DNA of 64,000 nt, taken from the NCBI GenBank assembly GCA_944345705.1, contig CALVML010000002.1, forward strand, positions 19,992 through 83,991, read 5' to 3'. The notes under the pieces are model-generated. The model was not told the DNA's origin, did not search any database, and saw only the letters and a program-made list of their open reading frames with translations. Origin of the DNA: an uncultured Clostridia bacterium. Its GTDB lineage: Bacteria; Bacillota; Clostridia; Christensenellales; UBA1242. The position numbers were made by a program, and so were the translations under genes. How positions within the stretch are numbered: the stretch's first letter is position 1; each line of letters opens with the position of its first letter. Positions 16,787 to 41,832 of this stretch are shown here, piece after piece.

Positions 16787-17095
16787 ATTATCCCCCCCCA
16801 TTACGTAGATAGTATAACACACAATAAAATGATTTTTGTTACATTATTGTGAAGATTAATCCACAAAATGTTCTAGTTTTCAAATAAAACAAATCATGAA
16901 AATATTAGAAATTCGCCAAATTTCTACAAAATTTTACTTAAATTTTATGCAATATTTGAATTTGTTGTTTGCAATTTTTTTGTAATTAAATTGAGAGTTG
17001 TTTTTTAAAATCAAAAACATTAAAAAATTTCCAATCTTCAATTTTATTGGAGATGGAAACTTTTTAAATTGAAAATTATTAAAAACATTTTACTA

Positions 17096-23288: not shown

Positions 23289-25448
23289 TTAATACTTACT
23301 AGCATAAACAGCATATCCATTTTCTGAATTTTTATATTCATAATTATTTTTAATAGTATTATTCAAAACACCTTGCAATTCTTCAGGAATTCTAAGCGTG
23401 TTTACAACGTAAAATAATCCACCAAAATCAAAATAAGACTCATCTGCATTTGCAATTAATGGCTCACTTTCAATTGTAAGATCTCTTAATACGACGCCAT
23501 TATTGACAAAAGCTTCTTCTCCAATACTTTCAACGTCCTTCGGTATAGTGATTTTAGCTAATTCGTCACAATTTTTAAACGCATAAGCTCCAATAGTTTG
23601 CAGTTTTGATCCTTCTTCAAATTTTATTTCTTTTATAGACAACCAATAACCATCCTCAGTCATCAAATCAGAAGGCTGAGCAAACGCATAGTCTCCAATG
23701 CTTACTACACTTGCTGGTATTGTAATTGTTTCCAGTTTATTACATCCATAAAAAGTATAGTCTCCTATTGATTCAAGTTGAGAATTCGGTTCAAAAATCA
23801 CCTCTTTTAAGTTACTGATCATCTGAGGATATGGGTCTGGAATAACAGAACCACGACCTAGTAAATTAATACAAGATTCAGGATAATATGATGAAACAGA
23901 AAATGCACCATCCATATTTTTAACGCTTTGCGGTATTGTAATACTTTGTAAACTTTCACACCCAATGAATACACGACCATAAATAATATGACAATTGTCA
24001 TTTATTATGAAACTAGTGATCGACGATTTATCTCCATTAACTCCAACTAACATGAAATAAGGATTTGATGAATCACCAAGATATTTTCCGTATCCATCTA
24101 TGGTACCTTGCAAGTTTGAACAACTATCGAAGATTATAGATCCTAGTTTTTTAATTGTTGATGGTATATTGATTGACTGTAATGCATAACAATCTGCAAA
24201 TGCAGCATCATCTATTTCTTCTATATTTGTAGGTATATTTATAATTTCTATTCTTTTACAATAAGAAAATGCTTGTACACCAATTCTTTTCAGTGTTGAT
24301 GGCAATACTAAGGTTTGCAGATTTGCTTGACATGCGAAAGCTCTGTCATCAATCGTTTCCACTTTGGAATCTTGCGAAAATGTAACACTAATTAGTGGTG
24401 CTCCGTCTATATATCCATCGCTTGTGAACTGGCGAAAAGAGTCCTGACCAACTGTAATTATGTTTGTTCCCTCTTTCTCTACTATATAATCAACAGAATT
24501 TACTGATACAGTATCATAATATGATGGAATAACAATATCTTTATCACTGCCTATATAATTTGTAAGAGTGTTACCATCAAAAGTAAAGTCATCAAGTCTG
24601 CGATATGTTCCACCATCTGCATAGATTGTTATGTTACTCTCTGGCATAGTGAACGAATATTGTCCGTCTATTTGATTGATAGTGATATGTTCTTCACTGC
24701 CATTTTCAATATAATAGAGTCCTGAAAAGAGTGTAACATAATCTTCAGTTACTGAATCTTGTCCATTTGCAGTGACGATAATCTGTTCACCATTTGTTGC
24801 GCTATCTTTGCTTACTGCACTCACTATTCCACTTGCTGATGGATCAATTGATACTGAATAGATTGCTGGAGCTTCTTCATCAGTGTTTTCAAAGGTGTAA
24901 TTTAGTGAAAAACCTTGAATAGATGCGCTTTTTGTTGGATCTTTGATATGGAATACTATTTGACAATCTACTGAGTTATCGCTTGAGCCGTCATTTGCTG
25001 AAATAATTGTGTTTGTCTTTACGTTTCCATCAATCTTTGCTTGCATGGTCATATTGTTCATTTGAGTATAACTTGTTTCCAATGCCATCTTTAGATTGCT
25101 CTCTGTATGATTGTTGGTCACGCTAAATGATATTGTCACGTCTTCTAATCCATCGAATGTGATCTCTAAATTTTGCCATGTTGCTTTTTCTGTTGTTCCG
25201 TCTGTGGTAGGTGAAAGTACAATCTCTTGCATCTTGTTTTCACCTGCAACTGTTCCATTAGTTAATATACCTTGTGAGATAGTCGCTTGGACATCTGTTG
25301 CTTGGAATGATATATTTCCGCCGATATTCATATCAAACTTCTTGATAGCAAGTGTAACCGATACCGCTGTAGTGATAAGTAAAAGTAATGTAAGCAAGAT
25401 ATTGCATACAATCATTACTGATTTATTCTTTATCTTTTGATCTTTCAC
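23289..25448 (-). CDS. Membrane-anchored surface protein with a shared N-terminal domain and BspA-type leucine-rich repeats
   Basis: GTG start with an AAAGGAG SD. There is an N-terminal TM/signal anchor. Residues ~30-200 are paralogous to the upstream gene. The C-terminal half has repeated IP.s...IG..AF..C..L units (e.g. ITIPASVVSIGDYAF, INIPSTIKKLGSIIFDSCSNLQ). Confidence 0.8.
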   Translation of the reverse strand: MKDQKIKNKSVMIVCNILLTLLLLITTAVSVTLAIKKFDMNIGGNISFQATDVQATISQGILTNGTVAGENKMQEIVLSPTTDGTTEKATWQNLEITFDGLEDVTISFSVTNNHTESNLKMALETSYTQMNNMTMQAKIDGNVKTNTIISANDGSSDNSVDCQIVFHIKDPTKSASIQGFSLNYTFENTDEEAPAIYSVSIDPSASGIVSAVSKDSATNGEQIIVTANGQDSVTEDYVTLFSGLYYIENGSEEHITINQIDGQYSFTMPESNITIYADGGTYRRLDDFTFDGNTLTNYIGSDKDIVIPSYYDTVSVNSVDYIVEKEGTNIITVGQDSFRQFTSDGYIDGAPLISVTFSQDSKVETIDDRAFACQANLQTLVLPSTLKRIGVQAFSYCKRIEIINIPTNIEEIDDAAFADCYALQSINIPSTIKKLGSIIFDSCSNLQGTIDGYGKYLGDSSNPYFMLVGVNGDKSSITSFIINDNCHIIYGRVFIGCESLQSITIPQSVKNMDGAFSVSSYYPESCINLLGRGSVIPDPYPQMISNLKEVIFEPNSQLESIGDYTFYGCNKLETITIPASVVSIGDYAFAQPSDLMTEDGYWLSIKEIKFEEGSKLQTIGAYAFKNCDELAKITIPKDVESIGEEAFVNNGVVLRDLTIESEPLIANADESYFDFGGLFYVVNTLRIPEELQGVLNNTIKNNYEYKNSENGYAVYASKY

Positions 25449-25466
25449 TTTCTATCTCCTTTTAGT

Positions 25467-26054
25467 TTATTCGTTTACTTGTTCAAGGTCACATGTAAAT
25501 GTAAAGCCATCTATACTTGCGCTTTGTGTATTGTTTGTAATATGAAATTTGATCACACAATCTACTTCATTGTCGTTTGAGCCTGCGTCTGCTGGTATTG
25601 TCACTGTAGGAGTTGTTGATACATCAGTTCCATCTACTGTAGCTGTCATCTTCATATTATCTGCCGATGTTGAGTTTGTACTCAATGTCATCTTTAAGCC
25701 ACTTTCTGTATGGTTGTTTGTTACTGTAAATGTAATTGTCACATCTTGAAGTCCGTCAAATGTGATTACTAAGTTTTGCCATGTTGCCTTTTCTGTAGCA
25801 CCATCTGTCCCTGGTGTCAATGTAATTGCCTGCATCTTGCTTTCGCTGTCTGCTAGTGTTCCGTTTGCTACCACTCCTTTAGAGATAGTTGCCTGTACTT
25901 CACTTGCCTGGAAATTGATATTTCCACCTATATTCATATTAAACCTGTCTATGGCAAGTGTTATCGTCACAGCTGTAGTGACAAGTAAAAGTAGTGTGAG
26001 TAAAACGTTGCAAATTATCAAAAATGATTTTCTTTTTACATTTGAATCTTTCAT
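25467..26054 (-). CDS. 195-aa membrane-anchored protein, paralogue of the N-terminal domain of the downstream LRR protein
   Basis: ATG at 26054 with an AAAGGAGGG SD. It has a TM anchor and is ~60-65% identical by eye to residues 1-190 of the 23289-25448 product (NIGGNI.FQA..VQATIS.G...EKATWQNL.ITFDGL.DVTI.F.VTNNHTES.LKM). Confidence 0.75.
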   Translation of the reverse strand: MKDSNVKRKSFLIICNVLLTLLLLVTTAVTITLAIDRFNMNIGGNINFQASEVQATISKGVVANGTLADSESKMQAITLTPGTDGATEKATWQNLVITFDGLQDVTITFTVTNNHTESGLKMTLSTNSTSADNMKMTATVDGTDVSTTPTVTIPADAGSNDNEVDCVIKFHITNNTQSASIDGFTFTCDLEQVNE

Positions 26055-26106
26055 CTTTTGCCCTCCTTTTAAAAAATTCAATGTCAATCTTTTTTTGACA
26101 ACTTCT

Positions 26107-26134
26107 ATTATATCCCCCCCCCGCAAAATGTCAA
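26107..26134 (-). promoter_or_regulatory. Consensus promoter TTGACA-16-TATAAT with a G9 homopolymer in the spacer
   Basis: The minus strand reads TTGACATTTTGCGGGGGGGGGATATAAT. -35 at 26129-26134, G9 at 26114-26122, -10 at 26107-26112. Confidence 0.65.
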
Positions 26135-26977: not shown

Positions 26978-28435
26978 CTAGAATAATGAAGATAATAGAC
27001 GCATAATCGCTTGTAAGAATTTTGTTATCCAGCGTTTCTTTTGGAAATAGCTGACGCCTGCAAGTCTAGAACAAGAGATATCCTTTTTTATTTGTTCAAA
27101 GTAAGTGGCATTGAGATCATTTGAATAGATAATTGCTGTATCTTCAAAGTTGAGTCCAAATGAACGATTGTCAGTATTACAGGTTCCTATTGAAAGTTTG
27201 TTATAATCTACTAAGATCACTTTGCTATGCAAAAACCCGTCATATAGATAGATCTTTACTCCAAGTTCTGCCATCTCTCTTAAGAAGGATAGAGTTACAA
27301 AGTAGACTGTTTTCTTGTCTGGCTTTGCTGGCACCATTATTGAGATATCAATTCCGCTTTTAACTGCAATGCGAATTGCCGATATAAAGACATCATCTGG
27401 CACAAAGTATGGCGTTTGAATAAAAATTCTCTCTTTGGCATTTATGATCATGTGCACAAAGGTTTCTTTTATTCTCTGCACCTGACTATCAGGCCCTGAA
27501 GTCATGATCTGCATTGTGGCATTCCCCTTAAACTCTGGCGAAGGAAAATAGCCATTTGTAAGATATAGTTGTGGTGGTGTATTGTCGTTTTTACAATAAC
27601 GCCAATCATCTAAGAATATGTTTTGGAGTGCGTATACTCCGCTTCCTTCAATCTTGATATGAGTGTCACGCCACGGCTTTAGTTTCTTATCCTTGCCCAT
27701 GTGATCATCTCGAATATTGATACCACCAGTATAGCCGATTTTGCCATCAATAACCACAATTTTGCGGTGATTGCGATAGTTAAGCTTGAGATTTAGAAGT
27801 CTTATGTGCATAAATGGCGGAAAGAATTCCCCTACCTGCCCGCCAGCACTTACAAGCCTATTGAAAAACTTGCGCGGTGCATGACGAGAACCGATTGAGT
27901 CGTATATCAATTTGACATCAACGCCTTCTTTTGCCTTCTTACAAAGGATGTTCATGATCTCGGTTCCTACCCCATCATTTGCAAAGATATAATACTCCAT
28001 GTGTATTGTGCTTTTGGCATTTAATAGGTCTTGTTTTAAACTTTCAATTTTGCTCTCGCCAAAGTTGAAAATGGTTACTTTGCTAGCTGGAAGCGGATAT
28101 GCACCAAATGAATAACAAAATGTTGCAAGTTCTCGATCATTGATTAAAATTCCGTCAAGTCTTGCTTGTTCAAGTGTTTGAATACCTTTGATATTCTTGA
28201 TAATGTCACGCTCTGAAATCGCCTTTTTCTTGATCATTCGTCTGGTACGAACAGATAGTCCACTGCCAAATACTATATAGAGCAAGAAACCTAATATTGG
28301 CAAGAATGTCATCACGGTCATCCAAGCAATGATATTTTGTGGTTTTCTCTTTTCAAGAAAAATCATACCTATGAGAAGGAAAAAGTTTACAATTGCTATT
28401 ACTGTAATCATAATTACAAACCAGTTGCCAAACAT
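26978..28435 (-). CDS. cls: Cardiolipin synthase
   Basis: Two N-terminal TM helices and two HKD motifs (NHRKIVVIDG, LHSKVILVD). Strong SD. Confidence 0.9.
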   Translation of the reverse strand: MFGNWFVIMITVIAIVNFFLLIGMIFLEKRKPQNIIAWMTVMTFLPILGFLLYIVFGSGLSVRTRRMIKKKAISERDIIKNIKGIQTLEQARLDGILINDRELATFCYSFGAYPLPASKVTIFNFGESKIESLKQDLLNAKSTIHMEYYIFANDGVGTEIMNILCKKAKEGVDVKLIYDSIGSRHAPRKFFNRLVSAGGQVGEFFPPFMHIRLLNLKLNYRNHRKIVVIDGKIGYTGGINIRDDHMGKDKKLKPWRDTHIKIEGSGVYALQNIFLDDWRYCKNDNTPPQLYLTNGYFPSPEFKGNATMQIMTSGPDSQVQRIKETFVHMIINAKERIFIQTPYFVPDDVFISAIRIAVKSGIDISIMVPAKPDKKTVYFVTLSFLREMAELGVKIYLYDGFLHSKVILVDYNKLSIGTCNTDNRSFGLNFEDTAIIYSNDLNATYFEQIKKDISCSRLAGVSYFQKKRWITKFLQAIMRLLSSLF

Positions 28436-28641
28436 TTCCCTCTCCTTTTAGTATATTTTTTATAATTTTAGTTTATTTTTTGTATTTTTTTTAAAAATTT
28501 ATCAATATTTTTAATAATTTTTAATTGTCACTTTTGGCAATTCTAAAAAGCAAGAAAAATTATCTATAATTTTTCGGTCGCGCCGCTTGTATACAGTCTA
28601 AAAGGGCTTTATCAGCCCTTCTAGATTTTAACTGCCTGTAA

Positions 28642-31600
28642 CTACGCTCTAAAATCTTCAGCCCAGCCAACTAAGATCGAGCCAAGTTCATAGGATATAT
28701 TAACATTGCCTACATCATATCCATTGTCAAGAGTCGATATATCTCTATCTGCACCTGAAACAACAACTCTAAATACAATTTCGATATATTGGTCGTAAGT
28801 GTAGTTGGATCCATAGGTTATTCTACCATAACTATAATCAGTGTCATTTCGCTTGCTATAATCATTATTGATAGATACATCACCCGAACCGCTTCCGCCA
28901 AGTGGGTCAATCATAAACCAGATATAGTCTTTATTAAAACCTTTTTCACTACCATTGCTTACTGTTGTATTATCCACAGCTGCGCCACGTAGCGTTAAAA
29001 CAGGTGAATAATTTTCTTGTGGTGGTTCTGTTGCTGGAGTCCAAGAACTTAAGCTAGTGTAAATATTACCGCTATCTGTTCCACTCTCTTGTAATCTTCT
29101 GATAATTTGATCGGTTGTTGCACCACTCATACTAAAATATTTTCCTGTTACATAGTATCTATGGCTTACTCTATAATTTAAGGACTGATCGCCACCTTTC
29201 GAATCTTTACCCTTCTCAACTTGAGCAATGTAGTATTTATCTATAGTATAGTAACTGTTTGATCCCGACAATCGTTGTGCATTTTCTACATAGATATAGT
29301 CGTTTGTGGTAGTTTGAATTTGGAATGTGATCTTGGCTCCACTTGTCAAAACGTTACCATTATTCAATTTGCCCGTTGTATCATCACCTTGATTGTTATA
29401 AACAATATAATAGAATGTCGCATTGCCGTTGGCATTTGATATTGTTATTGTATCACCCAATTGGACACTTGTATTTAGAAGCGATGAGATTGAAAGATAT
29501 GTCGTCTTATCATAGGAATCATGGTTCGATCTTGATACTGCGACATCTGAAACAATTGTTGCATTTTTTCTTGTCAATGATATATTAAAACTTGCTGTAG
29601 ATTGCGCTTTGATCAATAGTTCAAGCGTATCATTTAAGTAAGTTGTTTCCAATGTTTGATTCAGTCCATCAGTCACAGTAAATGCTTTCTTTAAATCAAT
29701 ACTTTCACCATCTGCAACTACTTTAGCATGCTCAACTATCTTAACTTCTCGTACAACAGTTACAATAGTTTGAAGATCGGTATATTCTACAGTATCACCT
29801 TTCTCATATTTAAGTCTAATCACTAATATCATGTCTGTTTCTGTAGAATTTGCGTATACTTCACCAGCAAAAGAAGGTACTTGAATTGCTTGTTGTACTT
29901 CGCTTCCAAATTCATTCTCAAAAGTACCTGAGATGAAAGGTTCGCGAATTTTATCTTCTAGTCCATTGAAGAATGCATTTTGAGTAGTAGTTGTTGCAAG
30001 ATTATATTTATCAGATCCGCTTGTAAGTGTAATTTTTGTTGCATTTCCTATATTATTAAGTTTTATGTTGAATGTGGCAGTATTTGAATTAATAGTATCA
30101 TGTTCTGCAGTAATTCCTGATGGAAGTAGACTATCGATATTTGCGGTTATATCGTTTGCTATTTCATTTGTTATTGATGCAGTATCGGCTTTTATAGTTA
30201 GAGAAACAGTAGAGTTTGCTGTAACTGTCATTTTGTAAGTCTGTTCGTCTAGAGTATAACTTAAAGCAGTAGTGTCACTACCATAGTTTGTAGACCATGT
30301 ACCGCCAGTCTTTGTTGCTAAGATATAAGATGTGGCTTTTGGCATGATTGCAGTGCCTAGTGGTTCACCTGCTGGGTTGTCTTCTTCATTGATTGCATAG
30401 AACTTTGCACTATCCACAGTCACATATTTGAAACTTGGCGAATCGAACTTTTCTTTTGCTGCAGGTGTCCACATACCAACTTCACTATAATCAGTTTCTT
30501 TTTCTTCTGTTCTTGGATTATCACCTGTAATAGGTTTATATCCATTAGAACCGTTAGCTTGCAAATATTTATTATTAGTTGGTCCGCTCTCTGTCCCAGT
30601 TGTGCTTGTAGTATAATCTCTATCGAAGAAATATGTGCCTACATTAGCAATATTGATAAGTGGCACTTCTGCCGAGCTTTCAGGAGAAACAGGAGTACTT
30701 TGATTGATTGCATAACTGCCAGGATCACCTTCACCACTGCCTGCACTATATTCAATATTTAGCATAGTGTAAATAGAACCAATGTCAAAATAGTCAAGTT
30801 CATTCAAAACAGGATTTCCCCCTGTTGCAATGGATGGTTGAGTGTATTGAGATTTTAGACAGAAATAGAATTGATATTTATATCCGTAGACATCCACGCC
30901 TTCAATCATATAGTACTGATTGCCGAAGATGACTTCTTTGACAGCACTAAATGTGATTGCAGATGTTTGTCTAATGCCATCCTTAGTTTTATATGCATAT
31001 CCAGTTGTTGTTGATGCGGTAGGTGGTAGTGCTTGCCAATTCGTCATATTTGTACTATTGGCATACGCAAACTTTTGTTTAAAGTTTTCTTTATCATTTA
31101 TCGCTCTGCCTGATATCGTTTGATCAAGAGTAAGAGTTATATCAAAGTTGGTTGTAGAATATTCAGTGCTTGTATTATTTCCATATCGATGTTTGATTGA
31201 TAACTCTCCTTCGGTGCTATCAGTTGATGTCAATGTAAATGCTGAATAATTATTCTGTCCGTCAGCATTTGTTATTGAATATACATCAAATGGCTTATTA
31301 ACATTAGATACTATGCCTAAGCCATCTTCGCCAGTAGAAGTGGTCTTGTTATCAGTTGAACCGCTGAATGAAACGATATAGTCAGGCAAAACCTGATATA
31401 CCACATAGAATGTTTCACTATACCCGCCAGTTGAACTATAAGTAATCTTGCTGAGTACAAAGTCGCCATTTACTTGAGCGCCGAGTGGCATTACGCTTGC
31501 GTCATAGATTGCACCTGATGCATTTCTCATTGGAGAGTAAGCAATATATTCGTTTGTACCTTGATCATAGTTTGTTCCAGTATAAGTTGCATAATGTTTG

Positions 31601-34600
31601 AACTCGCTTATTCCATTCAATGTCATAAATGCTTCAAGAGAATTTTGCACTGAAGTATCAGGAACATTAGTTTTATAATCCGTACTATAATAGATAATTT
31701 CAAATTGAATATTTGCTTTGCCATCGCCAAAGTCAGATGCTGAAACATAGCTGTCATTGGTTGGATGTTTGATGCCAAGCTGTTGAACTATACTTGGGTA
31801 TTTTTCATTGACAGTAACATCTTCATGGTTGTTGACAGTAAATGCCTTTTCAACTTCAATGTCAATTCTTGGCATAAAGTAATATGTTGTTGACAATGAC
31901 TTTATGTAACTTTTGCCATTAATGCTTGTTAAAGTGTCATTAGTAGAATTTGTAGTTATCACAACTTGACTTACACCATTTGCAACTGAAATTCGACTAA
32001 TTGGAGTAAGAGATTTGATTTCGTTAATTGGATCTTGGGCAACAGTTGATGTTCCGTCACTAGTTAATGTCGTTGCGCTTACATCATGGTCTGTAATATA
32101 ATTACTAAAATAGCTATAATCAACTTTATTGCCACCATAGTAGAGTTGTATTCTGCTTACAAGTTGTTTTGTAGTAAAGAGTGCATTGTTTTCATCGACA
32201 TTTGTAATTGATTCAAGATCATCTGCTGTTATATTTACTGTGCTGGTTGTTACTGTACCTGATTCATTTGTAGTTCTTACTGTCTTTTGCATTAAGCCAG
32301 TTCCATCAAAACCTATGCCTTCGTTTTCAATGGCAGATGCTCTATAAGTGCCATAATATTCTTTACCATGCATTGAATAGCCTAAATCAAGATATTGATT
32401 TGAGCCTTGGTCTTCAAGACTGATATATTGAGCATAGGATGCATAGAATTTATCATCTGTGCCTTTGAATACAAGGTAGTAAGTGTCGTCGTTTGTAAGA
32501 GTGTTTGCAATCTGCACTTGGAACATTCTATCACCCGAGAAAATATTATTTGTATTTGTCTTGTCGACATAGATTGTTTCGTGAGTGACAGTTGAAGTTG
32601 TATCATCTCCATTATCTATAACGCCACTTGTTGCATACTTTGTATAGATTGCAGGAATTGTGAAGACGCTGTCAAGAAGTTCTATAGTATAAGTAGTAGT
32701 TGCCTCTCTATATGTAATCTCAAATATGATTACAGAGCGTTCTCCACTTGTAACATAATCGTTTTGATCGGTCTTATCGCCATCTGTATCATTGGTCTGA
32801 CTGTAAGTACCGCGTCTTAAGTATAGACCTTGACCTTGAGTTAAATTAATGGCATTTGATGCATAGTATTGTGTCGTTCCTATACCACCTTGACTATATT
32901 GCCAAATAGTTGCATTTTGAATTTCTTGAATAACCACACTTATTGTGTCAGCAGTCAACCCTTCAGTAATTTGCGATCCTTGTACAGTGCCATTTTTGTC
33001 AGCATTCAAATTGTTTTGGTATGCTGTAAATCTATTAGCATTTTCCCCCATATTATATATAGGATTTGAAAGGACGAAATCAGAAAGAGTATTGTTGATT
33101 ACCGAGCCATTTTCAAAGTATTCAATTTTAAGTTCGGTCTTACCGTCTGGCACTGGATAATTGGTGTCAACAGTGACTGCCTTATATACATTGAATGTAT
33201 AGGTAAATGTAATAGATTCGCTAGGCTTACTTGTTTCACCTGATGCACTAAATGCAAAGTGCATAGTAATATTGATTGATACCGATTGCATTTCAGATGA
33301 GATATCCTTGATTGTAACTGAAGTGCTTTTAGAATCTGCAAATATTCCCTCGCTTGTATCAACAGCTGAACTTGTAGAAGATGCAGAATAGGTAAGAGTA
33401 GTTCTATCATCTATTTCTTTATTTAAAGCGTTGATATATAAGTAATCTTTGTTCAGATTATTATTATCGATAAGATCATAATCATTTACCCCTGCAAGTG
33501 AAGATTCGCCTGTGATTGCTTGTACTGAAATATTTCTCTTAAAGGTCAAGGTATCAGTGAATGTAAAGGTGTTGTTATCATTAAACGTGATCGTGAAATC
33601 AAAGGTCACCGTCTTGTCAGATACGATATCTGCAACAACGAACTTGTTGCCTTCAATTTTGACAAATCTATGATCATTATTATTAGCACTTCGCATTTCT
33701 GCTGTAACAGTGTAGTCTGTGGCTTCATCATTATTTAATTTTATATCATAAACTTTACTAAAATTGATATCTTGTCCGCCAACAAGGTTGCTTGCGACTT
33801 CGACAGGGTTGTCGCCTTCCGTCATTTTACGAGCATAGCTTGCATTTGCTTTGATATTAATGCGCAAGGTTGCAAGATAGCCATACTGCGTATAGACAGA
33901 GAATTTTATTGTTGTGTCCTTTGAAATATAGTCTTTAAGTGTAAGTTTGAATTGATATGGAGAAAGTCCCTTATCATCAATATAAGAATGAGTGTTGTAA
34001 GCATAACTTTCAAAATCAACGTCTTCATTTCCGTCTACGAGTTTGATTTGAAGAAGATCTGAAACGACTGTACCTGTTGTCGTTTCTTGTCCAGCATCTG
34101 AATTGGATACAAGTTGTACTGTGAGAGTCTGCTCTCTTGGATTATCTGCAGTGTATGCATTTTCAAGTTCCCATGTATAGACGCCGTCATAAACGCTTTG
34201 AACATTGCCTTCATTTGTTGTAAATCTTGCATTGTAACTGCTATTGTTTTCATCATTTAAAACAATAGTATAATACTGCTCTGCTCCATAGATTGAGCGC
34301 TTATATTTTTGTTCGAGTGAAGTGTCACTTTCATAGGTACGCTTGATTACTATCTCTATTCTTTCACTTGTCTTTACCACATAGTCAAAAGTTGATCCTT
34401 CGATCACATTGCCATTGACATTATAGAATGTGATATCTTCTGCCCATTGCTCAGGGAATGTATATGGATCTTGTCCACCTACCTTCACGCTTTCAATAAC
34501 ATTTGTAGAAACAAGGTTTGCAAAGATTGCTCTATTTACAGAAGAAGTTCCTGATGCATCTTGCTTGCTTATAAATTCAGCAACAGCCTTTAAGTCTTCA

Positions 34601-37600
34601 CTGTCTGTATAAATACCACCAGTAAATGATAAAGTCAAAGATGAGCCATCATAGATATAGCATGAGCCAGAGCGAACGATAAGTTCAACACTCTCAATAT
34701 TGATATTAGTTGCATTTTCACTGAGTATGTCAGACAATTGAAGATATAGATAACTATTTATATTATTACCAATATTAATAGCGCAATCGCTTGTAATATC
34801 GTCTAAGATAACCATTTGATCGGCAAAAGATTTTGGTTCATCATTTTCAATATAATTTCCGCTAACTTTAAAAGCAAGCGATACTTCACTGCTAGAGCGA
34901 ACATCAACAACAAGAATACCAATATTGCTACTCAACATCTTGCTGACATTGAAACGAGAGAACCCTTCATTCAAAGTAGTTTCATCATAGATCTTGTCAA
35001 GATCAAATGTCTGTCGAGAATTTTGGTCTACTCTTATATGTTCTTCGCCCTCTTCGCCGTAATTTGTATAGGCATAAGTTGACGCTTCGACATTGATATC
35101 AGGAGTGATCTTAAGCAAGTAATAGAATATTTGATATCTTCCATTATAATTGATATTATATGATAGTCCTAAATAGAAGTTTTCATATAGAGTGTCATTT
35201 GTAAGATGGTTAAGGTCGAGATAGCCGTTGTTACTATCAATACCCTTAATTATAGATTTATTTGTAAGGTTTGTGCCATCTGTTACTGTTGGATAATATG
35301 TAATAGTTGGAGTAACTGAATAGCCACCATCTCGTATAGGCCTAATAAGTCCATTTTCGCCAGTAGAATTTTCGTAGTAGCTGACTTCTTTTATTATTTG
35401 AGTAGCTTGACCTGCAGTAATTTCATTATATATGCCTTGTTTTAAAAGTTCGCTTGGATCAGTAAGAGCAGTTTCTAGCGTGCGATTGTCTTCTACTCCA
35501 CTATTATATTCTACAAAATTGTAGCCTATTGCAGAATTGATCAAAGGAACATACATGATGGCTTTTGCGTTGGTACTACCAGTTTCGCTTCCTTGATTGA
35601 AGTATAATACAAGATATGAGTTTTCGTTGCCTAGTCCTCCAAGAAGTTGATTTTGGCTTCTGAGAGTGAATGTGTTTTGATTTTCTCCCGTGCTATAATA
35701 TGTATTTGCAGTGTCTGCATTTCTTATATACATTGTATAACTGCTGTCAAAATAATTATTATTATCCGATCTAGAGTTTGGCAAGGTGTATGCACTTGTA
35801 TCATATACAAGCATGATATACTCAACTCCATCAACTATTTGAGTGGTAGTATTATATGAGACATTATCTTTACTTATTTGAATTTGAGATGCAATATATT
35901 GATATATAGTTTGATCTTCTGTATTATACAGTTCAATATATACATCAACAGAACCTAGTGCGTTTCCATTAAGCATCAACGAGAGTTTTGTTGCATAACT
36001 TGTTGTATTATATTCAAATATAAAAGCCGATGAATTTAAAAGCTCTACATTGCTTCCATTGATTGTCAAATAATCTTCAAATTCACCACTAAAGTCTATA
36101 TTTTCTATAAGTGAACCATCGTGACGCTTGTATTGAATGAAATCTGTCCATTGTGGTGTTGAGCCTGTATTCAAAATGTAGAAAGTGTCAGTACCTGTTG
36201 CTAGATTGTCTAGATCAAGGTCACGCAAGATGATGAATGTAAGAGTATAACTTATTGCATACTGATTGTTGCCTTCTGGCTGGAATACTACTGAGAACTG
36301 TTTGTAATCGGTATCCCAGAAGTCATAGAACCTAATTGTCGCATTGCCTTCTTCATCAACAACCATTTTTCCAACTGCACTTCCTGTATATTGAGTTTTT
36401 AAGACATATTGTCCAGAACTTGGCTCAATATAATATGTACCTACTGTATAAAGACTTCCAAAACTTGACTGTTTACCTGCATTATTATTATTTGTCACCA
36501 TATTGGAAATTTGAGTGCCTTCACTATCACCATCTTCATCAGTTGCATAGATAAATCTTGATGAATCTGTAGTAGAACCATAGGTAGTTGCACCAGATAT
36601 TGCAATATTAGGCAATATTGTCATATTTAAAGTGATATTTACTACGCCTGAATTTGCTTCATCTGAAATAGTCAACTGTACTGATCTAGATTGATAGAAA
36701 TTTTTGTTTATCTGAATACTTGTAATCACCTTGCCCTGCAAGTTGCTTCTAATAGTGCTTGCATCAGTACCAGTTTGAATTTTTTGACCATTATTGTATA
36801 CAGTAAGCATTCCGTCTGTACCAAATAGGTCTACAATTGCTGAGCCTAAGTTTTCAAGATAAGAAGTCGAAAGTGTAAATTGTATCTTAGTAAACTGAAC
36901 ACCATTAACTTCAAGTCTAACTTGATTTGCAAGAATAATTGTATTATTAGAAGCGCCATATTTTGACATAGCGACAGATATCGTGCTTTCCGATTCTTCT
37001 TGATTTGTACCTTCGGTAATACTTGAATTAGGATCTAAATTGCTGTTAAAGAATACATCAGTAATTCCTGTTGAAGTAACATTGAATTTCATTTTAATAA
37101 CATCATCTGCCGATCCTGTTTCTACATTCCCATCAAGTGAAACAATGTCGATTACAACAATGCTTCCATTGCCATTTATGAATTGAATAGTCTGTCCTTG
37201 TACTGCTACAACATGACTGCTTCCTTCAAGCAATCTAAAACTCCACTCGCCTGCTAAGGTGTCTGTGCGACCTACTTGGTCAGTGATAACAATGTTTGCA
37301 AAGTTTTCGCCAAAGAAGCGGTTGAATAATGCTGTCAATGCGCTTTGTCCATCTTGTGCCTCTATTGGTGTTCCACCTAAAGAGATATTGAGAACTGTTT
37401 CGCCACTGTCAGCGTCAAGTGTTTGATTGACTGTGATTTCGCTGTCGCCTGTTAAATAGATTTGATCGTTAGGATCATATTCAAGAGTGATTGACTTTGC
37501 AATAGGATCATAGATCATAACTGTTTGATTTTCAAGAAGATCGCTTACTCTAAAGCCATTTCCGCCACCCCAAACAATATTGTTTTCTTCCTGAGTGTTA

Positions 37601-39933
37601 TAGGTAAGAGTAAATGAATTTACAATAACACCTAAGTCATCATTTTGAGTAACGATAGTAGTTGTTGGATTAAGTTGAAGTTCAAAAGTGAAAACGCCAT
37701 ATCCTTCTTCTTGATTTATTGAGAAGTCGCTTCTTACTAGGATAAAATTACCTTCGCTTACACTTTGAGTGATCGTTGAAATAACCTGATTATAACTATC
37801 GTAGATTGTTAGTGTCATAGAGCCAAGTTGTTCGCTAAACACTTCAACAGAGTCGCTGTTTACAATGAATGAAATTGAGAATGTACCATTATTGCCAAGA
37901 TCGATATAGTACATTTGATTATCTTCGTTGACAACAAACTGTCCCATTGACATGGTTGCCCCTATCACAGAGTCTTGACTCAACTCTTTCTTTACATCTA
38001 CCGAAATCGCCTCACTCATTCTTGCAATGCGATATAGGCCGTTTTCACTAACAACAGGAACGCCGTCCTGCACCATGATTGTGGCAAAATATAGATCAAA
38101 TAGTCCTGTATTATAAACTGTCAAACTTGTGCTTTCAATGCAATATAGGTAAAGTTCTTCAAGTCCAACACTGTAAAGTCCGCTTCGCTCGCTATTAAAT
38201 CCGCCATTTCCTAAAATTGAAATAACAGTGCTTGTGTCTACACCTTCACCAAAGTATGCAAATAGATATTTAGGCTTTTTATATATATTTTGTTCAGGCA
38301 CATACATATATTGACTTAAATCTTCGGTCTGTGAAATGATTGAGCCGTCACCCGAATAGTCGAGCATTATATCTAAACTTTCAATACCACTCCAATAAAC
38401 ATTTTGCTCTGTATGTTCTGTGACATTCATAGTTGATTCAAATAGAAGTGGAGCGCCATTTGATTGATATAAGCCTTTTTCGCCATTTTCAAGTTCAATC
38501 AAAAGACCTACTTTTACCTGTATAGTAGCAACCTGAGATGAAATCACACTCCAATATGAATTACCCTTATTTGAAAGCCCTTCAGAATAAGGTCTATAAT
38601 AGGTTTGTCCATCAATGACAACCGCGTCTCCGCCACTCACTTGCAAGAAAGCATCATTGCCAAGTGTTGGATCTATAGTCTGTCCTTGTCTATCAGTATA
38701 TGAGAAAGATAAAAGGACATTAGAAAGCATTGAAGGAACCGCCATTAAATTTGAATCTTGCACATAAGCGCCAACATTGATGCTTCCGCTTACCTGATTT
38801 GATACATAAATTCTTGTCGTATAGTTTTGAATTATATCAAAGGAATTTGCAAGACTGATATTGAAAGCACTTACATCTGCAGTGCCGATATCAATGCGAG
38901 TGCTAGTTAAGTATGCACTGTCTTGACTAGATGCAAGCATAGACACCATTTGAGTATAATAGTTTTCGTTCGTCACGCCAGACTCGGCAAGTTCCTGCTC
39001 AGCGATAAGTTGCGATTTCGCGTCTTTGAATACATAAGCATTGAGTTGTACGCCATCAACAATATCGTCACCTGCAACAAAATGCATGGTAGTGCTTGTG
39101 TCATAGACAGGCGTTACATTGTCAGAAGAAGATTGATAGAAAGCAAGTTTTTTTCTAACATTCTCACTTGTTATATTGCCCTGCTCAGAATTAACATCAT
39201 CGCTATACATATATTCGCTCTTTGCAGGAATAAATTTTGTTTGAATTGTGAATGTTTCACCGATTACAATTTTTTCAGCAGGATTGCCATCATCATTGAG
39301 AATGATTGCCTCAGTAGAATAAACAGGTACATCGACTGCAACTTTAACATTTATAGCACTTGCTTGAGATTGAGAGTATGCACTTCTTGCAGTGATTGTA
39401 GCAATGCCACCTGCAATCCAGTCAACCCGCTGTCCATTTTCCCAAATATATTCGCCATTTTCGTCTTTAAGATGTTCGGGGATAAGTTCAACAGTGAAAG
39501 GAGTGTTGAGTTGTACAACACTAGGCACGCGAATGACGCCATTTGATATGTATTGTCCATCAGCCGAAGTTCTTGAATTGCCATCAAGCGAAAGATTTAC
39601 AGAGCGTTGATTGACAACTGCCTCGGTGTCAGTAGATGTGATAGTAAGAGTAAAGTTGTCGGTAACCTCTAGTTGACCGTTGGCTTGATTGTAAAGTTCT
39701 AGATAACTATCATCTTGCACAAAGGTTATCCCTGAAGGATAGACTGGAGTTTCGCCGGTCTGCCCACCCCTTGAAAGATAAACGCCGAGCAAAGTTGCGC
39801 CCGCAATCAATCCAATACCGAGAATGACAGAAACAATGGTCATCCAAAGCTTCCACTTAGGCTTTATCTCGCCTGTGTCGACCTTCTCTTTATTTTTAAC
39901 CTTTTTGACTTTTTTCTCTTCTTTCTTACTCAT
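28642..39933 (-). CDS. Giant (3763 aa) N-terminally anchored extracellular protein, family unknown
   Basis: An uninterrupted 11.3-kb ORF with TAGGAG SD. A Lys-rich cytoplasmic head and a single TM (WMTIVSVILGIGLIAGATLLGVYL) are followed by ~3700 aa rich in T/S/N/Y/G/V. There is no LPXTG or other C-terminal sorting signal and no obvious internal tandem repeats by eye. Confidence 0.85.
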   Translation of the reverse strand: MSKKEEKKVKKVKNKEKVDTGEIKPKWKLWMTIVSVILGIGLIAGATLLGVYLSRGGQTGETPVYPSGITFVQDDSYLELYNQANGQLEVTDNFTLTITSTDTEAVVNQRSVNLSLDGNSRTSADGQYISNGVIRVPSVVQLNTPFTVELIPEHLKDENGEYIWENGQRVDWIAGGIATITARSAYSQSQASAINVKVAVDVPVYSTEAIILNDDGNPAEKIVIGETFTIQTKFIPAKSEYMYSDDVNSEQGNITSENVRKKLAFYQSSSDNVTPVYDTSTTMHFVAGDDIVDGVQLNAYVFKDAKSQLIAEQELAESGVTNENYYTQMVSMLASSQDSAYLTSTRIDIGTADVSAFNISLANSFDIIQNYTTRIYVSNQVSGSINVGAYVQDSNLMAVPSMLSNVLLSFSYTDRQGQTIDPTLGNDAFLQVSGGDAVVIDGQTYYRPYSEGLSNKGNSYWSVISSQVATIQVKVGLLIELENGEKGLYQSNGAPLLFESTMNVTEHTEQNVYWSGIESLDIMLDYSGDGSIISQTEDLSQYMYVPEQNIYKKPKYLFAYFGEGVDTSTVISILGNGGFNSERSGLYSVGLEELYLYCIESTSLTVYNTGLFDLYFATIMVQDGVPVVSENGLYRIARMSEAISVDVKKELSQDSVIGATMSMGQFVVNEDNQMYYIDLGNNGTFSISFIVNSDSVEVFSEQLGSMTLTIYDSYNQVISTITQSVSEGNFILVRSDFSINQEEGYGVFTFELQLNPTTTIVTQNDDLGVIVNSFTLTYNTQEENNIVWGGGNGFRVSDLLENQTVMIYDPIAKSITLEYDPNDQIYLTGDSEITVNQTLDADSGETVLNISLGGTPIEAQDGQSALTALFNRFFGENFANIVITDQVGRTDTLAGEWSFRLLEGSSHVVAVQGQTIQFINGNGSIVVIDIVSLDGNVETGSADDVIKMKFNVTSTGITDVFFNSNLDPNSSITEGTNQEESESTISVAMSKYGASNNTIILANQVRLEVNGVQFTKIQFTLSTSYLENLGSAIVDLFGTDGMLTVYNNGQKIQTGTDASTIRSNLQGKVITSIQINKNFYQSRSVQLTISDEANSGVVNITLNMTILPNIAISGATTYGSTTDSSRFIYATDEDGDSEGTQISNMVTNNNNAGKQSSFGSLYTVGTYYIEPSSGQYVLKTQYTGSAVGKMVVDEEGNATIRFYDFWDTDYKQFSVVFQPEGNNQYAISYTLTFIILRDLDLDNLATGTDTFYILNTGSTPQWTDFIQYKRHDGSLIENIDFSGEFEDYLTINGSNVELLNSSAFIFEYNTTSYATKLSLMLNGNALGSVDVYIELYNTEDQTIYQYIASQIQISKDNVSYNTTTQIVDGVEYIMLVYDTSAYTLPNSRSDNNNYFDSSYTMYIRNADTANTYYSTGENQNTFTLRSQNQLLGGLGNENSYLVLYFNQGSETGSTNAKAIMYVPLINSAIGYNFVEYNSGVEDNRTLETALTDPSELLKQGIYNEITAGQATQIIKEVSYYENSTGENGLIRPIRDGGYSVTPTITYYPTVTDGTNLTNKSIIKGIDSNNGYLDLNHLTNDTLYENFYLGLSYNINYNGRYQIFYYLLKITPDINVEASTYAYTNYGEEGEEHIRVDQNSRQTFDLDKIYDETTLNEGFSRFNVSKMLSSNIGILVVDVRSSSEVSLAFKVSGNYIENDEPKSFADQMVILDDITSDCAINIGNNINSYLYLQLSDILSENATNINIESVELIVRSGSCYIYDGSSLTLSFTGGIYTDSEDLKAVAEFISKQDASGTSSVNRAIFANLVSTNVIESVKVGGQDPYTFPEQWAEDITFYNVNGNVIEGSTFDYVVKTSERIEIVIKRTYESDTSLEQKYKRSIYGAEQYYTIVLNDENNSSYNARFTTNEGNVQSVYDGVYTWELENAYTADNPREQTLTVQLVSNSDAGQETTTGTVVSDLLQIKLVDGNEDVDFESYAYNTHSYIDDKGLSPYQFKLTLKDYISKDTTIKFSVYTQYGYLATLRINIKANASYARKMTEGDNPVEVASNLVGGQDINFSKVYDIKLNNDEATDYTVTAEMRSANNNDHRFVKIEGNKFVVADIVSDKTVTFDFTITFNDNNTFTFTDTLTFKRNISVQAITGESSLAGVNDYDLIDNNNLNKDYLYINALNKEIDDRTTLTYSASSTSSAVDTSEGIFADSKSTSVTIKDISSEMQSVSINITMHFAFSASGETSKPSESITFTYTFNVYKAVTVDTNYPVPDGKTELKIEYFENGSVINNTLSDFVLSNPIYNMGENANRFTAYQNNLNADKNGTVQGSQITEGLTADTISVVIQEIQNATIWQYSQGGIGTTQYYASNAINLTQGQGLYLRRGTYSQTNDTDGDKTDQNDYVTSGERSVIIFEITYREATTTYTIELLDSVFTIPAIYTKYATSGVIDNGDDTTSTVTHETIYVDKTNTNNIFSGDRMFQVQIANTLTNDDTYYLVFKGTDDKFYASYAQYISLEDQGSNQYLDLGYSMHGKEYYGTYRASAIENEGIGFDGTGLMQKTVRTTNESGTVTTSTVNITADDLESITNVDENNALFTTKQLVSRIQLYYGGNKVDYSYFSNYITDHDVSATTLTSDGTSTVAQDPINEIKSLTPISRISVANGVSQVVITTNSTNDTLTSINGKSYIKSLSTTYYFMPRIDIEVEKAFTVNNHEDVTVNEKYPSIVQQLGIKHPTNDSYVSASDFGDGKANIQFEIIYYSTDYKTNVPDTSVQNSLEAFMTLNGISEFKHYATYTGTNYDQGTNEYIAYSPMRNASGAIYDASVMPLGAQVNGDFVLSKITYSSTGGYSETFYVVYQVLPDYIVSFSGSTDNKTTSTGEDGLGIVSNVNKPFDVYSITNADGQNNYSAFTLTSTDSTEGELSIKHRYGNNTSTEYSTTNFDITLTLDQTISGRAINDKENFKQKFAYANSTNMTNWQALPPTASTTTGYAYKTKDGIRQTSAITFSAVKEVIFGNQYYMIEGVDVYGYKYQFYFCLKSQYTQPSIATGGNPVLNELDYFDIGSIYTMLNIEYSAGSGEGDPGSYAINQSTPVSPESSAEVPLINIANVGTYFFDRDYTTSTTGTESGPTNNKYLQANGSNGYKPITGDNPRTEEKETDYSEVGMWTPAAKEKFDSPSFKYVTVDSAKFYAINEEDNPAGEPLGTAIMPKATSYILATKTGGTWSTNYGSDTTALSYTLDEQTYKMTVTANSTVSLTIKADTASITNEIANDITANIDSLLPSGITAEHDTINSNTATFNIKLNNIGNATKITLTSGSDKYNLATTTTQNAFFNGLEDKIREPFISGTFENEFGSEVQQAIQVPSFAGEVYANSTETDMILVIRLKYEKGDTVEYTDLQTIVTVVREVKIVEHAKVVADGESIDLKKAFTVTDGLNQTLETTYLNDTLELLIKAQSTASFNISLTRKNATIVSDVAVSRSNHDSYDKTTYLSISSLLNTSVQLGDTITISNANGNATFYYIVYNNQGDDTTGKLNNGNVLTSGAKITFQIQTTTNDYIYVENAQRLSGSNSYYTIDKYYIAQVEKGKDSKGGDQSLNYRVSHRYYVTGKYFSMSGATTDQIIRRLQESGTDSGNIYTSLSSWTPATEPPQENYSPVLTLRGAAVDNTTVSNGSEKGFNKDYIWFMIDPLGGSGSGDVSINNDYSKRNDTDYSYGRITYGSNYTYDQYIEIVFRVVVSGADRDISTLDNGYDVGNVNISYELGSILVGWAEDFRA

Positions 39934-39978
39934 CTTAAACTCCTAACAAAATCGGCTGTTCGACTTCATGTTTAAAAT

Positions 39979-40008
39979 ATTATAAAATATTTTAATAATA
40001 AAAGGCAA
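39979..40008 (-). promoter_or_regulatory. Putative promoter of the giant gene (TTGCCT-18-TATAAT)
   Basis: -35 at 40003-40008, -10 at 39979-39984, about 40 nt upstream of the ATG. Confidence 0.4.
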
Positions 40009-40251: not shown

Positions 40252-41832
40252 ATGATACAAGTAACAAATGTTTCACTCGCCTTTGGCGGACGAGTGTTAT
40301 ATAAAGATGTCAACTTAAAATTTACAAAGGGCAACTGCTATGGCATAATCGGCGCAAATGGCGCAGGCAAAAGTACTTTTTTGAAGATTTTAACAGGCGA
40401 AATTGAAGCAAATACAGGCGAAATTTTTATCACACCTGGTGAGCGTATGAGCGTACTGAGCCAAAATCAAAATGCCTATGACAGCGAAACCGTGCTTGAC
40501 ACCGTCCTTTTAGGTCATAAAAGACTTATGGAGATCCAGAAAGAAAAGGACGCTCTCTATGCAAAGGAAGATTTTAGCGAAGAAGATGGTATTCGCGCTG
40601 GTGAACTAGAAACTGAATTTGCTGAACTTGGTGGCTGGGAAGCAGAAAGCGAAGCAAAACAACTTCTTCAAAGCCTTAAAATTGAAGAAGAACTTTACTA
40701 TACCCCTATGGCTGAAGTAGATCCAAAAATAAAGGTCAAGGTGTTGCTTGCACAGGCTCTATTTGGCAACCCTGACATCTTAGTACTTGACGAGCCTACC
40801 AACAACCTAGATTTCAAGACTGTAAGATGGCTTGAAGAGTTTTTGCTTGACTTTGAGAATATCGTCATCATTGTATCACACAACCGCCACTTTTTGAATA
40901 AGGTCTGCACACACATCTGCGATGTGGACTATGGCAAAATAAATATGTATATAGGAAACTATGATTTTTGGTATGAATCAAGCCAACTTATCTTAAGACA
41001 GATGAAGGATCAAAACAAGAAAGCCGAACAACGTGCCAAAGAACTCAAAGAATTTATCGCAAGATTCTCGGCAAATGCTTCAAAATCTAAACAGGCAACA
41101 AGCAGAAAGAAGGAACTTGAAAGACTTACAATCGAAGATATCAAACCGTCATCTCGCAAATATCCATATATTAACTTTGAATTCACTCAAGAAATCGGCA
41201 AGGAAGTGCTTAAACTTGAAGGCATATCCAAGAAAGGTATGTTTAGCAAACTAACTTTCAATATTGAAAAAGGTCAAAAAGTTGCATTCTTTGCAAAAAA
41301 CAGCCAGGTACTGACCACCCTATTCAATATCATACAGGGCACAGAAAAAGCCGACTGCGGAAATGTTTTCGTCGGCAAGACAATCAAGATCACTTCATTG
41401 CCACAAAACAATGACAGTTATTTCGAAGGCAATACAATGTCAATAGTCGACTGGCTTAGACAATACTCAAAAGACCAAAACGAAACATATATCCGCTCAT
41501 GGCTTGGCAGAATGCTCTTCACAGGCGAAGAAAATCTCAAACCTGCAAATGTGCTTTCTGGTGGCGAGCGCGTAAGATGTATGCTTGCAAAGATGATGTT
41601 AGAGCAAGGCAACCTACTGATTTTAGACGAACCAACAAACCACCTAGACCTTGAAAGTATCACTGCACTCAATAAAGGAATGCAAAATTTTAGAGGCAAT
41701 ATTCTATTTGCATCACACGACCAAGAGATCATAGAAACGGTTGCCAACCGAATAATAGACATAGTAGATGAAAATCACTACATTGACTTCACAGGCACCT
41801 ACGAAGAATACGCCGAAAAGTATTTAAAATAA
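40252..41832 (+). CDS. ABC-F family ATPase (YbiT-like) with one degenerate composite ATP site
   Basis: NBD1 has Walker A GANGAGKST and Walker B LVLDEPTNNLD. NBD2 has signature LSGGERVR and Walker B LILDEPTNHLD. The NBD2 Walker A position reads FFAKNSQVLTT, and the NBD1 signature position reads VDPKIKVKV. Confidence 0.9.
   Translation: MIQVTNVSLAFGGRVLYKDVNLKFTKGNCYGIIGANGAGKSTFLKILTGEIEANTGEIFITPGERMSVLSQNQNAYDSETVLDTVLLGHKRLMEIQKEKDALYAKEDFSEEDGIRAGELETEFAELGGWEAESEAKQLLQSLKIEEELYYTPMAEVDPKIKVKVLLAQALFGNPDILVLDEPTNNLDFKTVRWLEEFLLDFENIVIIVSHNRHFLNKVCTHICDVDYGKINMYIGNYDFWYESSQLILRQMKDQNKKAEQRAKELKEFIARFSANASKSKQATSRKKELERLTIEDIKPSSRKYPYINFEFTQEIGKEVLKLEGISKKGMFSKLTFNIEKGQKVAFFAKNSQVLTTLFNIIQGTEKADCGNVFVGKTIKITSLPQNNDSYFEGNTMSIVDWLRQYSKDQNETYIRSWLGRMLFTGEENLKPANVLSGGERVRCMLAKMMLEQGNLLILDEPTNHLDLESITALNKGMQNFRGNILFASHDQEIIETVANRIIDIVDENHYIDFTGTYEEYAEKYLK

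Follow-up and report, generated by a model that had tools for sequence, protein, structure and literature searches.

What might an uncultured bacterium do with a protein of 3763 residues that the domain databases do not recognise? The question is raised by a stretch of 64,000 nucleotides (nt), hereafter the window, from an uncultured Clostridia bacterium (UBA1242; assembly GCA_944345705.1, contig CALVML010000002.1, positions 19,992 to 83,991), in which one uninterrupted open reading frame (ORF) of 3763 codons (11.3 kb) runs from ATG to TAG at 28642-39933 of the minus strand. This giant gene belongs to a large, syntenic, consistently giant and unnamed family, and its product is read here as a surface fibril or adhesin that is rooted in the membrane, conserved at its base and diversifying at its tip, a reading to which we would give a probability of roughly 0.55. 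The evidence for the family, the anchor, the fold and the variability of the protein is presented first, followed by the competing explanations and the surrounding genes.

The reality of the gene was considered at the outset. The first-pass annotation of the window had reported an uninterrupted frame with a good Shine-Dalgarno sequence, which was confirmed, and had taken frameshifts in related genomes as the mark of an assembly artefact. At the base composition of the window (probability of a stop 0.077 per codon) the chance of 3763 stop-free codons is ~1e-132. The exact protein of 3763 amino acids (aa) was called on seven independently assembled contigs, from different samples and in the same context, and intact ORFs of 3683, 3602, 3642 and 3571 aa with 25-36% identity to the window protein were found in three lineages, the orthologs at loci L003, L007, L008 and L009 being intact and collinear with it end to end. 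The giant ORF is therefore not an assembly artefact; a single frameshifted relative, at locus L010, is outweighed by the many intact copies. The guanine plus cytosine (GC) content is like that of the flanks, and the gene is real and chromosomal.

Word-indexed searches with three queries gave only six fragments, and the family was revealed by an exhaustive hidden Markov model (HMM) scan of an N-terminal profile against 1.84 billion representatives. A total of 199 family clusters (at 50% identity) were found, 156 of them at E at or below 1e-30, with the window protein (P0007) as the top match (E 3e-255). Among the best 150 of the 199, the complete members are 3119-5670 aa long and the remaining ones at most 1840 aa, leaving a gap in length between 1850 and 3100 aa; the short members are presumably truncated where their contigs end. 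The loci come from metagenome-assembled genomes of uncultured Clostridia/Firmicutes, several of them from human gut metagenomes. Cluster look-up gave no name for any member in any source, and a description of the family was not found in the literature searched, in which a survey of giant genes deals with Clostridia proteins that are repetitive and longer than 10,000 aa (10.1101/2023.11.21.568195). All the members inspected begin with a short basic tail and one transmembrane (TM) helix. The family is defined here by a match to the N-terminal profile, a collinear core of at least ~3100 aa and the gene order ABC-F, giant gene, cardiolipin synthase (cls), all of which were found for the window protein. 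The conserved order, which includes the glycyl-tRNA synthetase (GlyRS) gene, the nucleoside diphosphate kinase (NDK) gene ndk and a U32 peptidase gene, can be written GlyRS <- ... <- ABC-F, giant -> cls (-> ndk -> U32 peptidase). The cls gene is the immediate downstream neighbour at every locus examined (L003, L005, L007, L009, L010, L011 and L012), and the order holds even around P0129 (5670 aa, locus L011), which is more distant than any other member examined.

In a local alignment, 119 full-length representatives prove collinear from end to end, the window protein showing an occupancy of 0.7-0.95 nearly throughout, apart from two lineage-specific insertions (Table 1). Conservation reaches 85% or more in 85 columns, distributed along the protein between aa 45 and aa 3727; they are mainly Y, G, F and P, and none is H or C, which looks like a structural rather than a catalytic signature. 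The best-conserved part of the family is aa 55-700. The core has a median length of 3466 aa, and the variation in length comes mostly from a variable C-terminal tail (r = 0.87), which exceeds 150 aa in 64 of the 119 members. When 18 members (the window protein and 17 others) were scanned against Pfam, no match was obtained in the family core, and the C-terminus of one member carried BspA-type leucine-rich repeats (LRR_5, E 6e-133). LRR_5 is also recorded on P0168, a 90%-cluster mate of P0057 from another lineage; the C-terminus of P0024 has Flg_new (the Listeria-Bacteroides repeat) and Laminin_G_2, and the L003 protein has Flg_new at aa 3618-3676 of 3683. The recognisable tails are thus few, and all are binding modules (BspA-LRR, Listeria-Bacteroides repeat, LamG).

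The signals for membrane anchoring lie at the N-terminus. The first 29 residues hold 12 K+R and 5 D+E, and by the positive-inside rule the N-terminus would lie inside the cell. The sole hydrophobic segment of the protein in a Kyte-Doolittle window, at aa ~27-55, carries a motif, KWKLWMTI...GxTxLGVYL, that is kept across lineages. A motif scan of the giant protein found no AXA cleavage site after the helix, no lipobox and no YSIRK. The C-terminus of the window protein lacks both a hydrophobic segment and an LPXTG-type sorting signal, the lone pattern match being an internal LPPTA at aa 2969. The residues T (10.7%), S (9.9%), N (8.3%), I (7.6%), G (7.2%), V (7.0%), D (6.7%) and Y (6.6%) lead the composition, only four Cys are present in the 3763 aa, and the ectodomain is strongly acidic (457 D+E against 218 K+R). 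Searches of Pfam and NCBIfam gave the window protein no domain match, Big and other Ig-like families included (none in Pfam at E at or below 1); a weak match to Sipho_tail has an E-value of 0.33. No match to the giant protein was obtained in PHROG and PADLOC, Rfam returned nothing but a distant tRNA, and an SLH or CWB2 domain was absent by Pfam from every member scanned. Comparison of the PDB sequences with three family profiles (of up to 3621 positions) gave only noise at E ~1 (BONZAI C2, titin, Atg19).

The fold of the membrane-proximal third could be modelled. An AlphaFold2 (AF2) model from a six-row alignment had a predicted local distance difference test score (pLDDT) of 51 and was kept out of the fold search. 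With a 41-row alignment, aa 55-1254 gave a mean pLDDT of 87.9 and a predicted template modelling score (pTM) of 0.44, with 45% strand and 11% helix. About ten sandwich-sized units, averaging ~110-120 aa, were counted from the strand pattern, together with a helical hairpin at aa ~305-335. Foldseek searches of this model against the PDB returned only tandem immunoglobulin (Ig)-like arrays at 6-10% identity (E ~1e-17 to 1e-7), namely Nup210 (E 2e-17), titin I65-I70 and the large chains of the sperm-axoneme central apparatus, followed by alpha2-macroglobulin (alpha2M) and ECAM, the macroglobulin (MG) arrays of C3/C5, VEGFR/KIT, cadherins and mastigoneme, with the S-layer protein SbsC at rank 33; against BFVD, phage Ig-like tail and decoration proteins were matched. 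The model therefore predicts with confidence that aa 55-1254 form a tandem array of Ig-like beta-sandwiches. As regards the Big_*/E-set group, the fold was found for these residues only, and no HMM match was obtained. The larger alignment turned a region of pLDDT 51 into an Ig-array model of pLDDT 88, an indication that annotation from sequence only can fall short.

Repeats are not visible in the sequence itself, since a tile BLAST within the giant protein found none and tile HMMs built from the orthologs gave a best off-diagonal score of 8.5 bits. They were detected by comparing 120-aa profile tiles of the 119-sequence family alignment with hhalign, using reversed profiles as the control. A cryptic segment recurs in at least eight copies, at aa ~1071-1150, 1199-1270, 1570-1660, 1993-2060, 2096-2150, 2206-2300, 2823-2855 and 3366-3440. 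The best-scoring pairs reach 33-34 (probability 85%, E 6e-6), and ~20 pairs that agree with one another score above 22.5, the control reaching a maximum of 21.0 with 18.7 as its next value. Because the first two copies fall inside modelled beta-sandwiches and the unmodelled part matches the modelled part in residue composition, the whole ectodomain may be a chain of ~30-35 ancient, sequence-distinct Ig-like domains, a figure extrapolated from the ~10 domains in the 1200 modelled residues. A crude composition scan of the unmodelled part found no stretch rich in helix formers longer than ~160 aa.

Much of what the first-pass annotation had proposed is borne out by these results. The charge count, the Kyte-Doolittle profile and the AF2 model support its Lys-rich cytoplasmic head, single TM helix and beta-rich ectodomain; its statement that LPXTG, SLH, choline-binding and catalytic signatures are absent held up in the motif and Pfam searches, and Pfam, NCBIfam and the PDB sequences agree with it in giving no named family. 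Profile searches resolve no known adhesin domains of which the protein might have been a mere concatenation. Its claim that no Ig- or cadherin-like periodicity is present stands at the level of sequence and fails in structure, where the Ig-like array and the cryptic repeats appear. It had also counted proteins of this kind as poorly characterised; the window protein is no orphan oddity, being one member of the large unnamed family described above. The most informative property of the family, the strain-level hypervariability of its distal part, is invisible from a single sequence.

The giant protein diverges much more quickly than the products of the neighbouring genes. Across lineages it is 24-32% identical, as compared to 78-90% for ABC-F, 59-80% for GlyRS and 57-74% for cls. 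Locus L010 belongs to the same species as the window (cls 99.2%, U32 peptidase 98.2% and NDK 96.4% identical), and its giant protein, compared over aa 2237-3763, is only 65-74% identical to that of the window. The DNA of the two is 96-100% identical in cls and ndk, whereas in the distal giant gene it breaks up into a mosaic of 56-95% identity per 200 nt, with a sharp boundary of divergence ~300 nt inside the 3' end of the gene. For aa 2824-3763 the synonymous divergence (dS) from L010 is 0.32 and the nonsynonymous divergence (dN) 0.15 (dN/dS 0.48; 0.18-0.84 in most blocks), as against a dS of 0.07-0.10, dN of 0.003-0.008 and dN/dS of 0.05-0.08 for the cls and U32 flanks. The most strain-variable block is the insertion at aa ~3200-3340, the proportion of nonsynonymous differences (pN) from L010 reaching 0.41 at aa 3237-3295. 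For the N-terminal part, comparisons over 1245 aa (L004) and 438 aa (L002) gave a dS of 0.06-0.09, no higher than in the flanks, with a dN of 0.017-0.045 and dN/dS of 0.28-0.53; the ABC-F flank at the same two loci has a dS of 0.10-0.12 and a dN and dN/dS of 0. The whole giant protein thus appears to be weakly constrained, and its distal third seems additionally to carry older or imported alleles, which is how an exposed surface structure would be expected to evolve. A diversity-generating retroelement, for whose reverse transcriptase no dedicated search was made, is an unlikely source of the variability, because the divergence, which extends over more than 4 kb in mosaic blocks with raised dS, does not resemble a short adenine-targeted variable repeat. 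The L010 copy of the gene, on a single metagenome scaffold, is frameshifted by a 10-nt tandem duplication (GACTTTGTAC/GACTTTGTAT) at L010:1880-1900 (window aa ~2826), downstream of which a frame of 902 codons is still open; the frameshift may reflect an assembly error, a switch resembling phase variation or an inactivation that happened very recently.

The reading as a surface fibril or adhesin builds on what was established here, namely the ORF and its family, the signals of topology, the synteny, the gradient of variability, the cryptic repeats and the fold of aa 55-1254. The protein would be a type-II (N-in, C-out) acidic fibril on a Gram-positive-type, uncultured, low-GC gut Clostridia cell. 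The Lys-rich tail and the uncleaved single TM helix would anchor it in the membrane, and the ~3700-residue ectodomain would be exported and fold as a chain of ~30-35 Ig-like beta-sandwiches, which when extended would exceed 100 nm, cross the wall and project outward. Since the host encodes a penicillin-binding protein (PBP) with PASTA domains and an LtaS-like sulfatase, it has a wall of the Gram-positive type. The membrane-proximal part, comprising about the first six domains, is the most conserved, consistent with shielding in the wall zone or contact with it. The distal third, if exposed, may diversify by recombination of divergent alleles under relaxed or diversifying selection, and about half of the full-length members bear extra variable C-terminal tails, the few recognised ones of which are ligand-binding modules. 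A diversifying tip with occasional binding modules points to adhesion or surface recognition (of host mucus, particles or other cells) as the likeliest role, with phages and/or the host immune system probably exerting the pressure behind the variation.

Very large, acidic, beta-rich surface proteins with tandem Ig-like or related domains that project past the wall, such as Ebh, SasG/Aap, Mub and Esp, are well known. These have near-identical repeats, cleaved (often YSIRK) signal peptides, LPXTG or a C-terminal TM segment, and Pfam matches, whereas the giant protein carries an N-terminal signal anchor and lacks LPXTG, repeats at the sequence level and any match in Pfam. The giant adhesins of the RTX/type I secretion system (T1SS) class (LapA, SiiE, MpIBP) are defined by RTX nonapeptides and adjacent T1SS genes; no RTX or GGxGxD motif and no HemolysinCabind match was found in the window protein, and no T1SS genes were found near the giant gene. 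Giant Ig-like surface proteins as such are known, and the unnamed family is distinct by its anchoring, collinearity, synteny and variability.

Several points weigh against the adhesin reading. Stalk-type adhesins usually vary in repeat number, and the fixed domain order and hard minimum length of the giant protein are atypical of them. The strain-level hypervariability comes from a single strain comparison (L010), and part of the dN in that frameshifted copy could be pseudogene decay, against which stand the raised dS and the open frame of 902 codons. No domain can be recognised in most of the C-terminal tails, that of P0129 (1824 aa) among them, and no module is appended to the window protein. 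A functional domain other than Ig-like could lie within the 2500 aa outside the model, the conserved blocks at aa 2800-2850 and 3000-3050 being examples of possible places. Moreover, it is by inference that we regard the protein as exported, extended, surface-exposed and adhesive and that we name the agents of selection.

The fixed order and length would fit better with a structural scaffold or coat of the envelope that is not an adhesin, namely a brush-like layer replacing an S-layer, or a molecular ruler, in which each domain has its own packing role and the association with cls may be functional, through anchoring in a membrane domain. This is the main rival explanation, possible but on balance doubtful. 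The core is strictly collinear and non-repetitive, with the floor (3119 aa) and median length given above, the chromosomal position among housekeeping genes is conserved in every lineage examined, and for 1200 residues arranged like beads on a string the pTM of 0.44 is rather high. As structural analogues, scaffolds of non-identical Ig-like domains match best. Among these, Nup210, the titin I-band and the sperm-axoneme central-apparatus chains are closest in fold class (Foldseek E 2e-17 to 1e-14) and are, like the giant protein, long chains of sequence-distinct Ig-like domains whose order and length are fixed, and Nup210 moreover crosses the membrane once. They are, however, eukaryotic, and at 7-10% identity and a TM-score of ~0.1 the resemblance is one of fold class only, with no sign of common descent. 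SbsC of Geobacillus is likewise built as a chain of Ig-like domains. In S-layer genes, cassettes that are hypervariable between strains lie beside conserved flanks, as do the slpA cassettes of Clostridioides difficile, so that hypervariability of the kind seen in the giant gene would suit a surface coat as well. On the other hand, no lattice-forming or wall-binding module of the SLH or CWB2 type was found, and the giant protein differs from S-layer proteins further in its TM-helix anchor and in being 2-10 times larger, while variable C-terminal binding modules suit recognition better than packing. The bearing of cls is equally divided. It lies directly behind the giant gene, its start falling on the last base of the giant-gene stop codon in L011, and in other lineages the spacing ranges from a 1-base overlap to ~45 nt. 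In the window, a 206-nt spacer with the hairpin and a separate Shine-Dalgarno sequence parts the two genes, and the synteny may be inherited gene order within a fairly narrow clade, as the identity of ABC-F indicates.

A more specific form of the scaffold proposal holds that the protein is the principal fixed-length envelope scaffold of the clade, a brush of membrane-rooted fibrils, each of more than 100 nm and with ~32 non-interchangeable Ig-like domains, that substitutes for an S-layer, serves as a ruler of the Nup210/titin type and is co-expressed with cls, its outer third being swapped as allelic cassettes under phage or IgA pressure. So detailed a combination is improbable.

The recurrence of alpha2M, ECAM and the C3/C5 MG arrays among the Foldseek matches (ranks 7-9, 13, 17 and 19-21) brings to mind a membrane-tethered, alpha2M-like or complement-like protease trap or defence protein. 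ECAM/YfhM and C3/C5 share with the giant protein a non-repetitive array of beta-sandwiches, and the bacterial alpha2Ms are N-terminally membrane-tethered. Nevertheless, this explanation is very improbable. The match to these proteins, at a TM-score of ~0.1 and 7-10% identity, is no better than that to titin or cadherin and is what any Ig-like array gives. The CxEQ thioester motif was not found in a motif scan of the window protein, and none of its four Cys lies in a conserved family column; no A2M, TED or CUB domain was found by Pfam in the 18 members scanned, the lipobox is lacking, the crude composition scan shows no helix-rich stretch of more than ~160 aa in the unmodelled part, and the giant protein is more than twice as long.

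No more credible is a motility 'leg' that would catch, pull and release host glycans in the manner of Gli349 of Mycoplasma mobile, a protein of 3183 aa in which an N-terminal TM segment is followed by 18 repeats of ~100 aa and by a binding foot at the C-terminus that resembles LRRs (PMC6376172). Gli349 is the closest known protein in layout, the giant protein likewise combining an N-terminal TM helix (aa 27-53), more than 3000 aa, domains of ~110-120 aa with cryptic repeats and a C-terminal binding part in some members, and the likeness is one of layout. The 18 repeats of Gli349 are recognisable, and it acts together with Gli123, Gli521 and an internal motor in a cell that has no wall, whereas the host of the giant protein has a peptidoglycan wall and no genes for Gli123/Gli521 partners or an F1-like motor are adjacent. 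Lastly, there is a negligible chance that the gene arose as an artefact, is a pseudogene in decay or is a tail-fibre-like gene carried by a prophage, the split L010 copy, the Sipho_tail match and the phage Ig-like fold matches being countered by the identical ORF in seven assemblies, hundreds of intact relatives, synteny with housekeeping genes, the absence of a PHROG match and a GC content like that of the flanks.

Table 1. Features of the giant gene and its immediate neighbours in the window (positions in nt of the window; aa numbering of the 3763-aa protein)
Feature	Position	Strand	Basis
Giant ORF, 3763 aa and stop	28642..39933	-	ORF call; identical protein on 7 contigs; collinear intact orthologs
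Shine-Dalgarno AGGAG	39940..39944	-	6 nt 5' of the giant-gene ATG; read from sequence
Sigma-70-like promoter match (TTGCCT, 18-nt spacer, TATAAT)	39979..40008	-	Consensus match only
Putative cytoplasmic Lys-rich tail, aa 1-26	39856..39933	-	12 K+R in aa 1-29
Predicted single TM helix (signal anchor), aa ~27-53	39775..39855	-	Kyte-Doolittle at least 1.6, no other such segment
~10 predicted tandem Ig-like beta-sandwich domains, aa 55-1254	36172..39771	-	AF2 model mfda884ae2c51; Foldseek
Cryptic recurring segment, at least 8 copies (span)	29614..36723	-	hhalign tile comparison
Lineage-specific insertion, aa ~1660-1800	34534..34956	-	Occupancy 0.08-0.41 in 119-member alignment; gapped against L003
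Lineage-specific insertion, aa ~3200-3340	29914..30336	-	Occupancy 0.08-0.44 in 119-member alignment
Hypervariable membrane-distal part, aa ~2237-3726	28755..33225	-	Comparison with conspecific L010
7-bp palindromic hairpin, then TTTT	28602..28620	-	~20 nt past the giant-gene stop; pattern only
Cardiolipin synthase gene (cls)	26978..28435	-	TIGR04265, 436.7 bits (cutoff 290); Pfam PLDc_N and two PLDc_2
ABC-F ATPase gene	40252..41832	+	Divergent upstream neighbour; kept in L003, L009, L011 and L012

The putative promoter sits in the 318-nt divergent intergenic region common to the giant and ABC-F genes, and the hairpin past the giant-gene stop is possibly a weak terminator or attenuator before cls. 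Downstream, two adjacent minus-strand genes at 23289-26126 encode N-anchored proteins of 719 and 219 aa with a paralogous N-terminal domain. The 719-aa protein, encoded three genes downstream of the giant gene, has BspA-type LRR_5 repeats with weak similarity to the adhesin HupY/LrrG; this separate BspA-LRR gene of the window and the LRR_5 fusion in P0168 make a weak Rosetta-stone link. This segment is absent from L010, where ndk directly precedes a 237-aa gene followed by the U32 peptidase gene. A gene for a type IV secretion system coupling protein (TraG/VirD4-like), seen at L011:28317-30302, ~3 kb downstream of cls, and not at the other loci, is probably part of an unrelated mobile element.

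Other large ORFs of the window were compared with the giant protein by blastp, which found no match, and paralogy with them was rejected. One of these, a plus-strand ORF of 1479 aa at 55399-59838, belongs to no Pfam or NCBIfam family and has only a low-complexity PARP-like match; it is unlike the giant protein. A minus-strand ORF of 1270 aa at 4137-7949 combines DUF4011, an AAA_11/AAA_12 helicase and an MTES_1575 restriction-endonuclease-like domain in a defence-like helicase-nuclease architecture. At 50991-53690 of the same strand, a protein of 899 aa has only an N-terminal CvpA (colicin V production) membrane domain recognised, with ~700 aa beyond it, and at 45462-46175 and 46249-46956, also of the minus strand, lie tandem Zn_peptidase_2 paralogs (a putative neutral zinc metallopeptidase family), a pair that occurs upstream of the giant-gene locus in L002 and L003 as well. 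Beside the tRNA gene at 10604-10675, ~6.2 kb of the window (10860-17028), encoding an RNase_T/BRCT exonuclease-like ORF, a second ABC-F-like ATPase and a 548-aa helix-turn-helix (HTH) protein, are replaced by ~125 nt in L010; this block is probably a strain-specific island integrated beside the tRNA gene.

The results thus add a sizeable family without a name, of 199 clusters at 50% identity and with no relative in Pfam, NCBIfam or the PDB even when family profiles are used, to the proteins of uncultured Clostridia recovered largely from human-gut metagenomes. It brings together an unusual set of properties, namely an N-terminal signal anchor, a non-repetitive, strictly collinear core of ~3500 aa that is never shorter than ~3100 aa, a fixed place beside cls, and a conserved base with a hypervariable tip. 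The giant protein is probably the largest exposed protein of these organisms and is a prime candidate for attachment to the host or to particles, for a phage receptor and for a target of IgA, and its gene could serve as a locus for strain typing.

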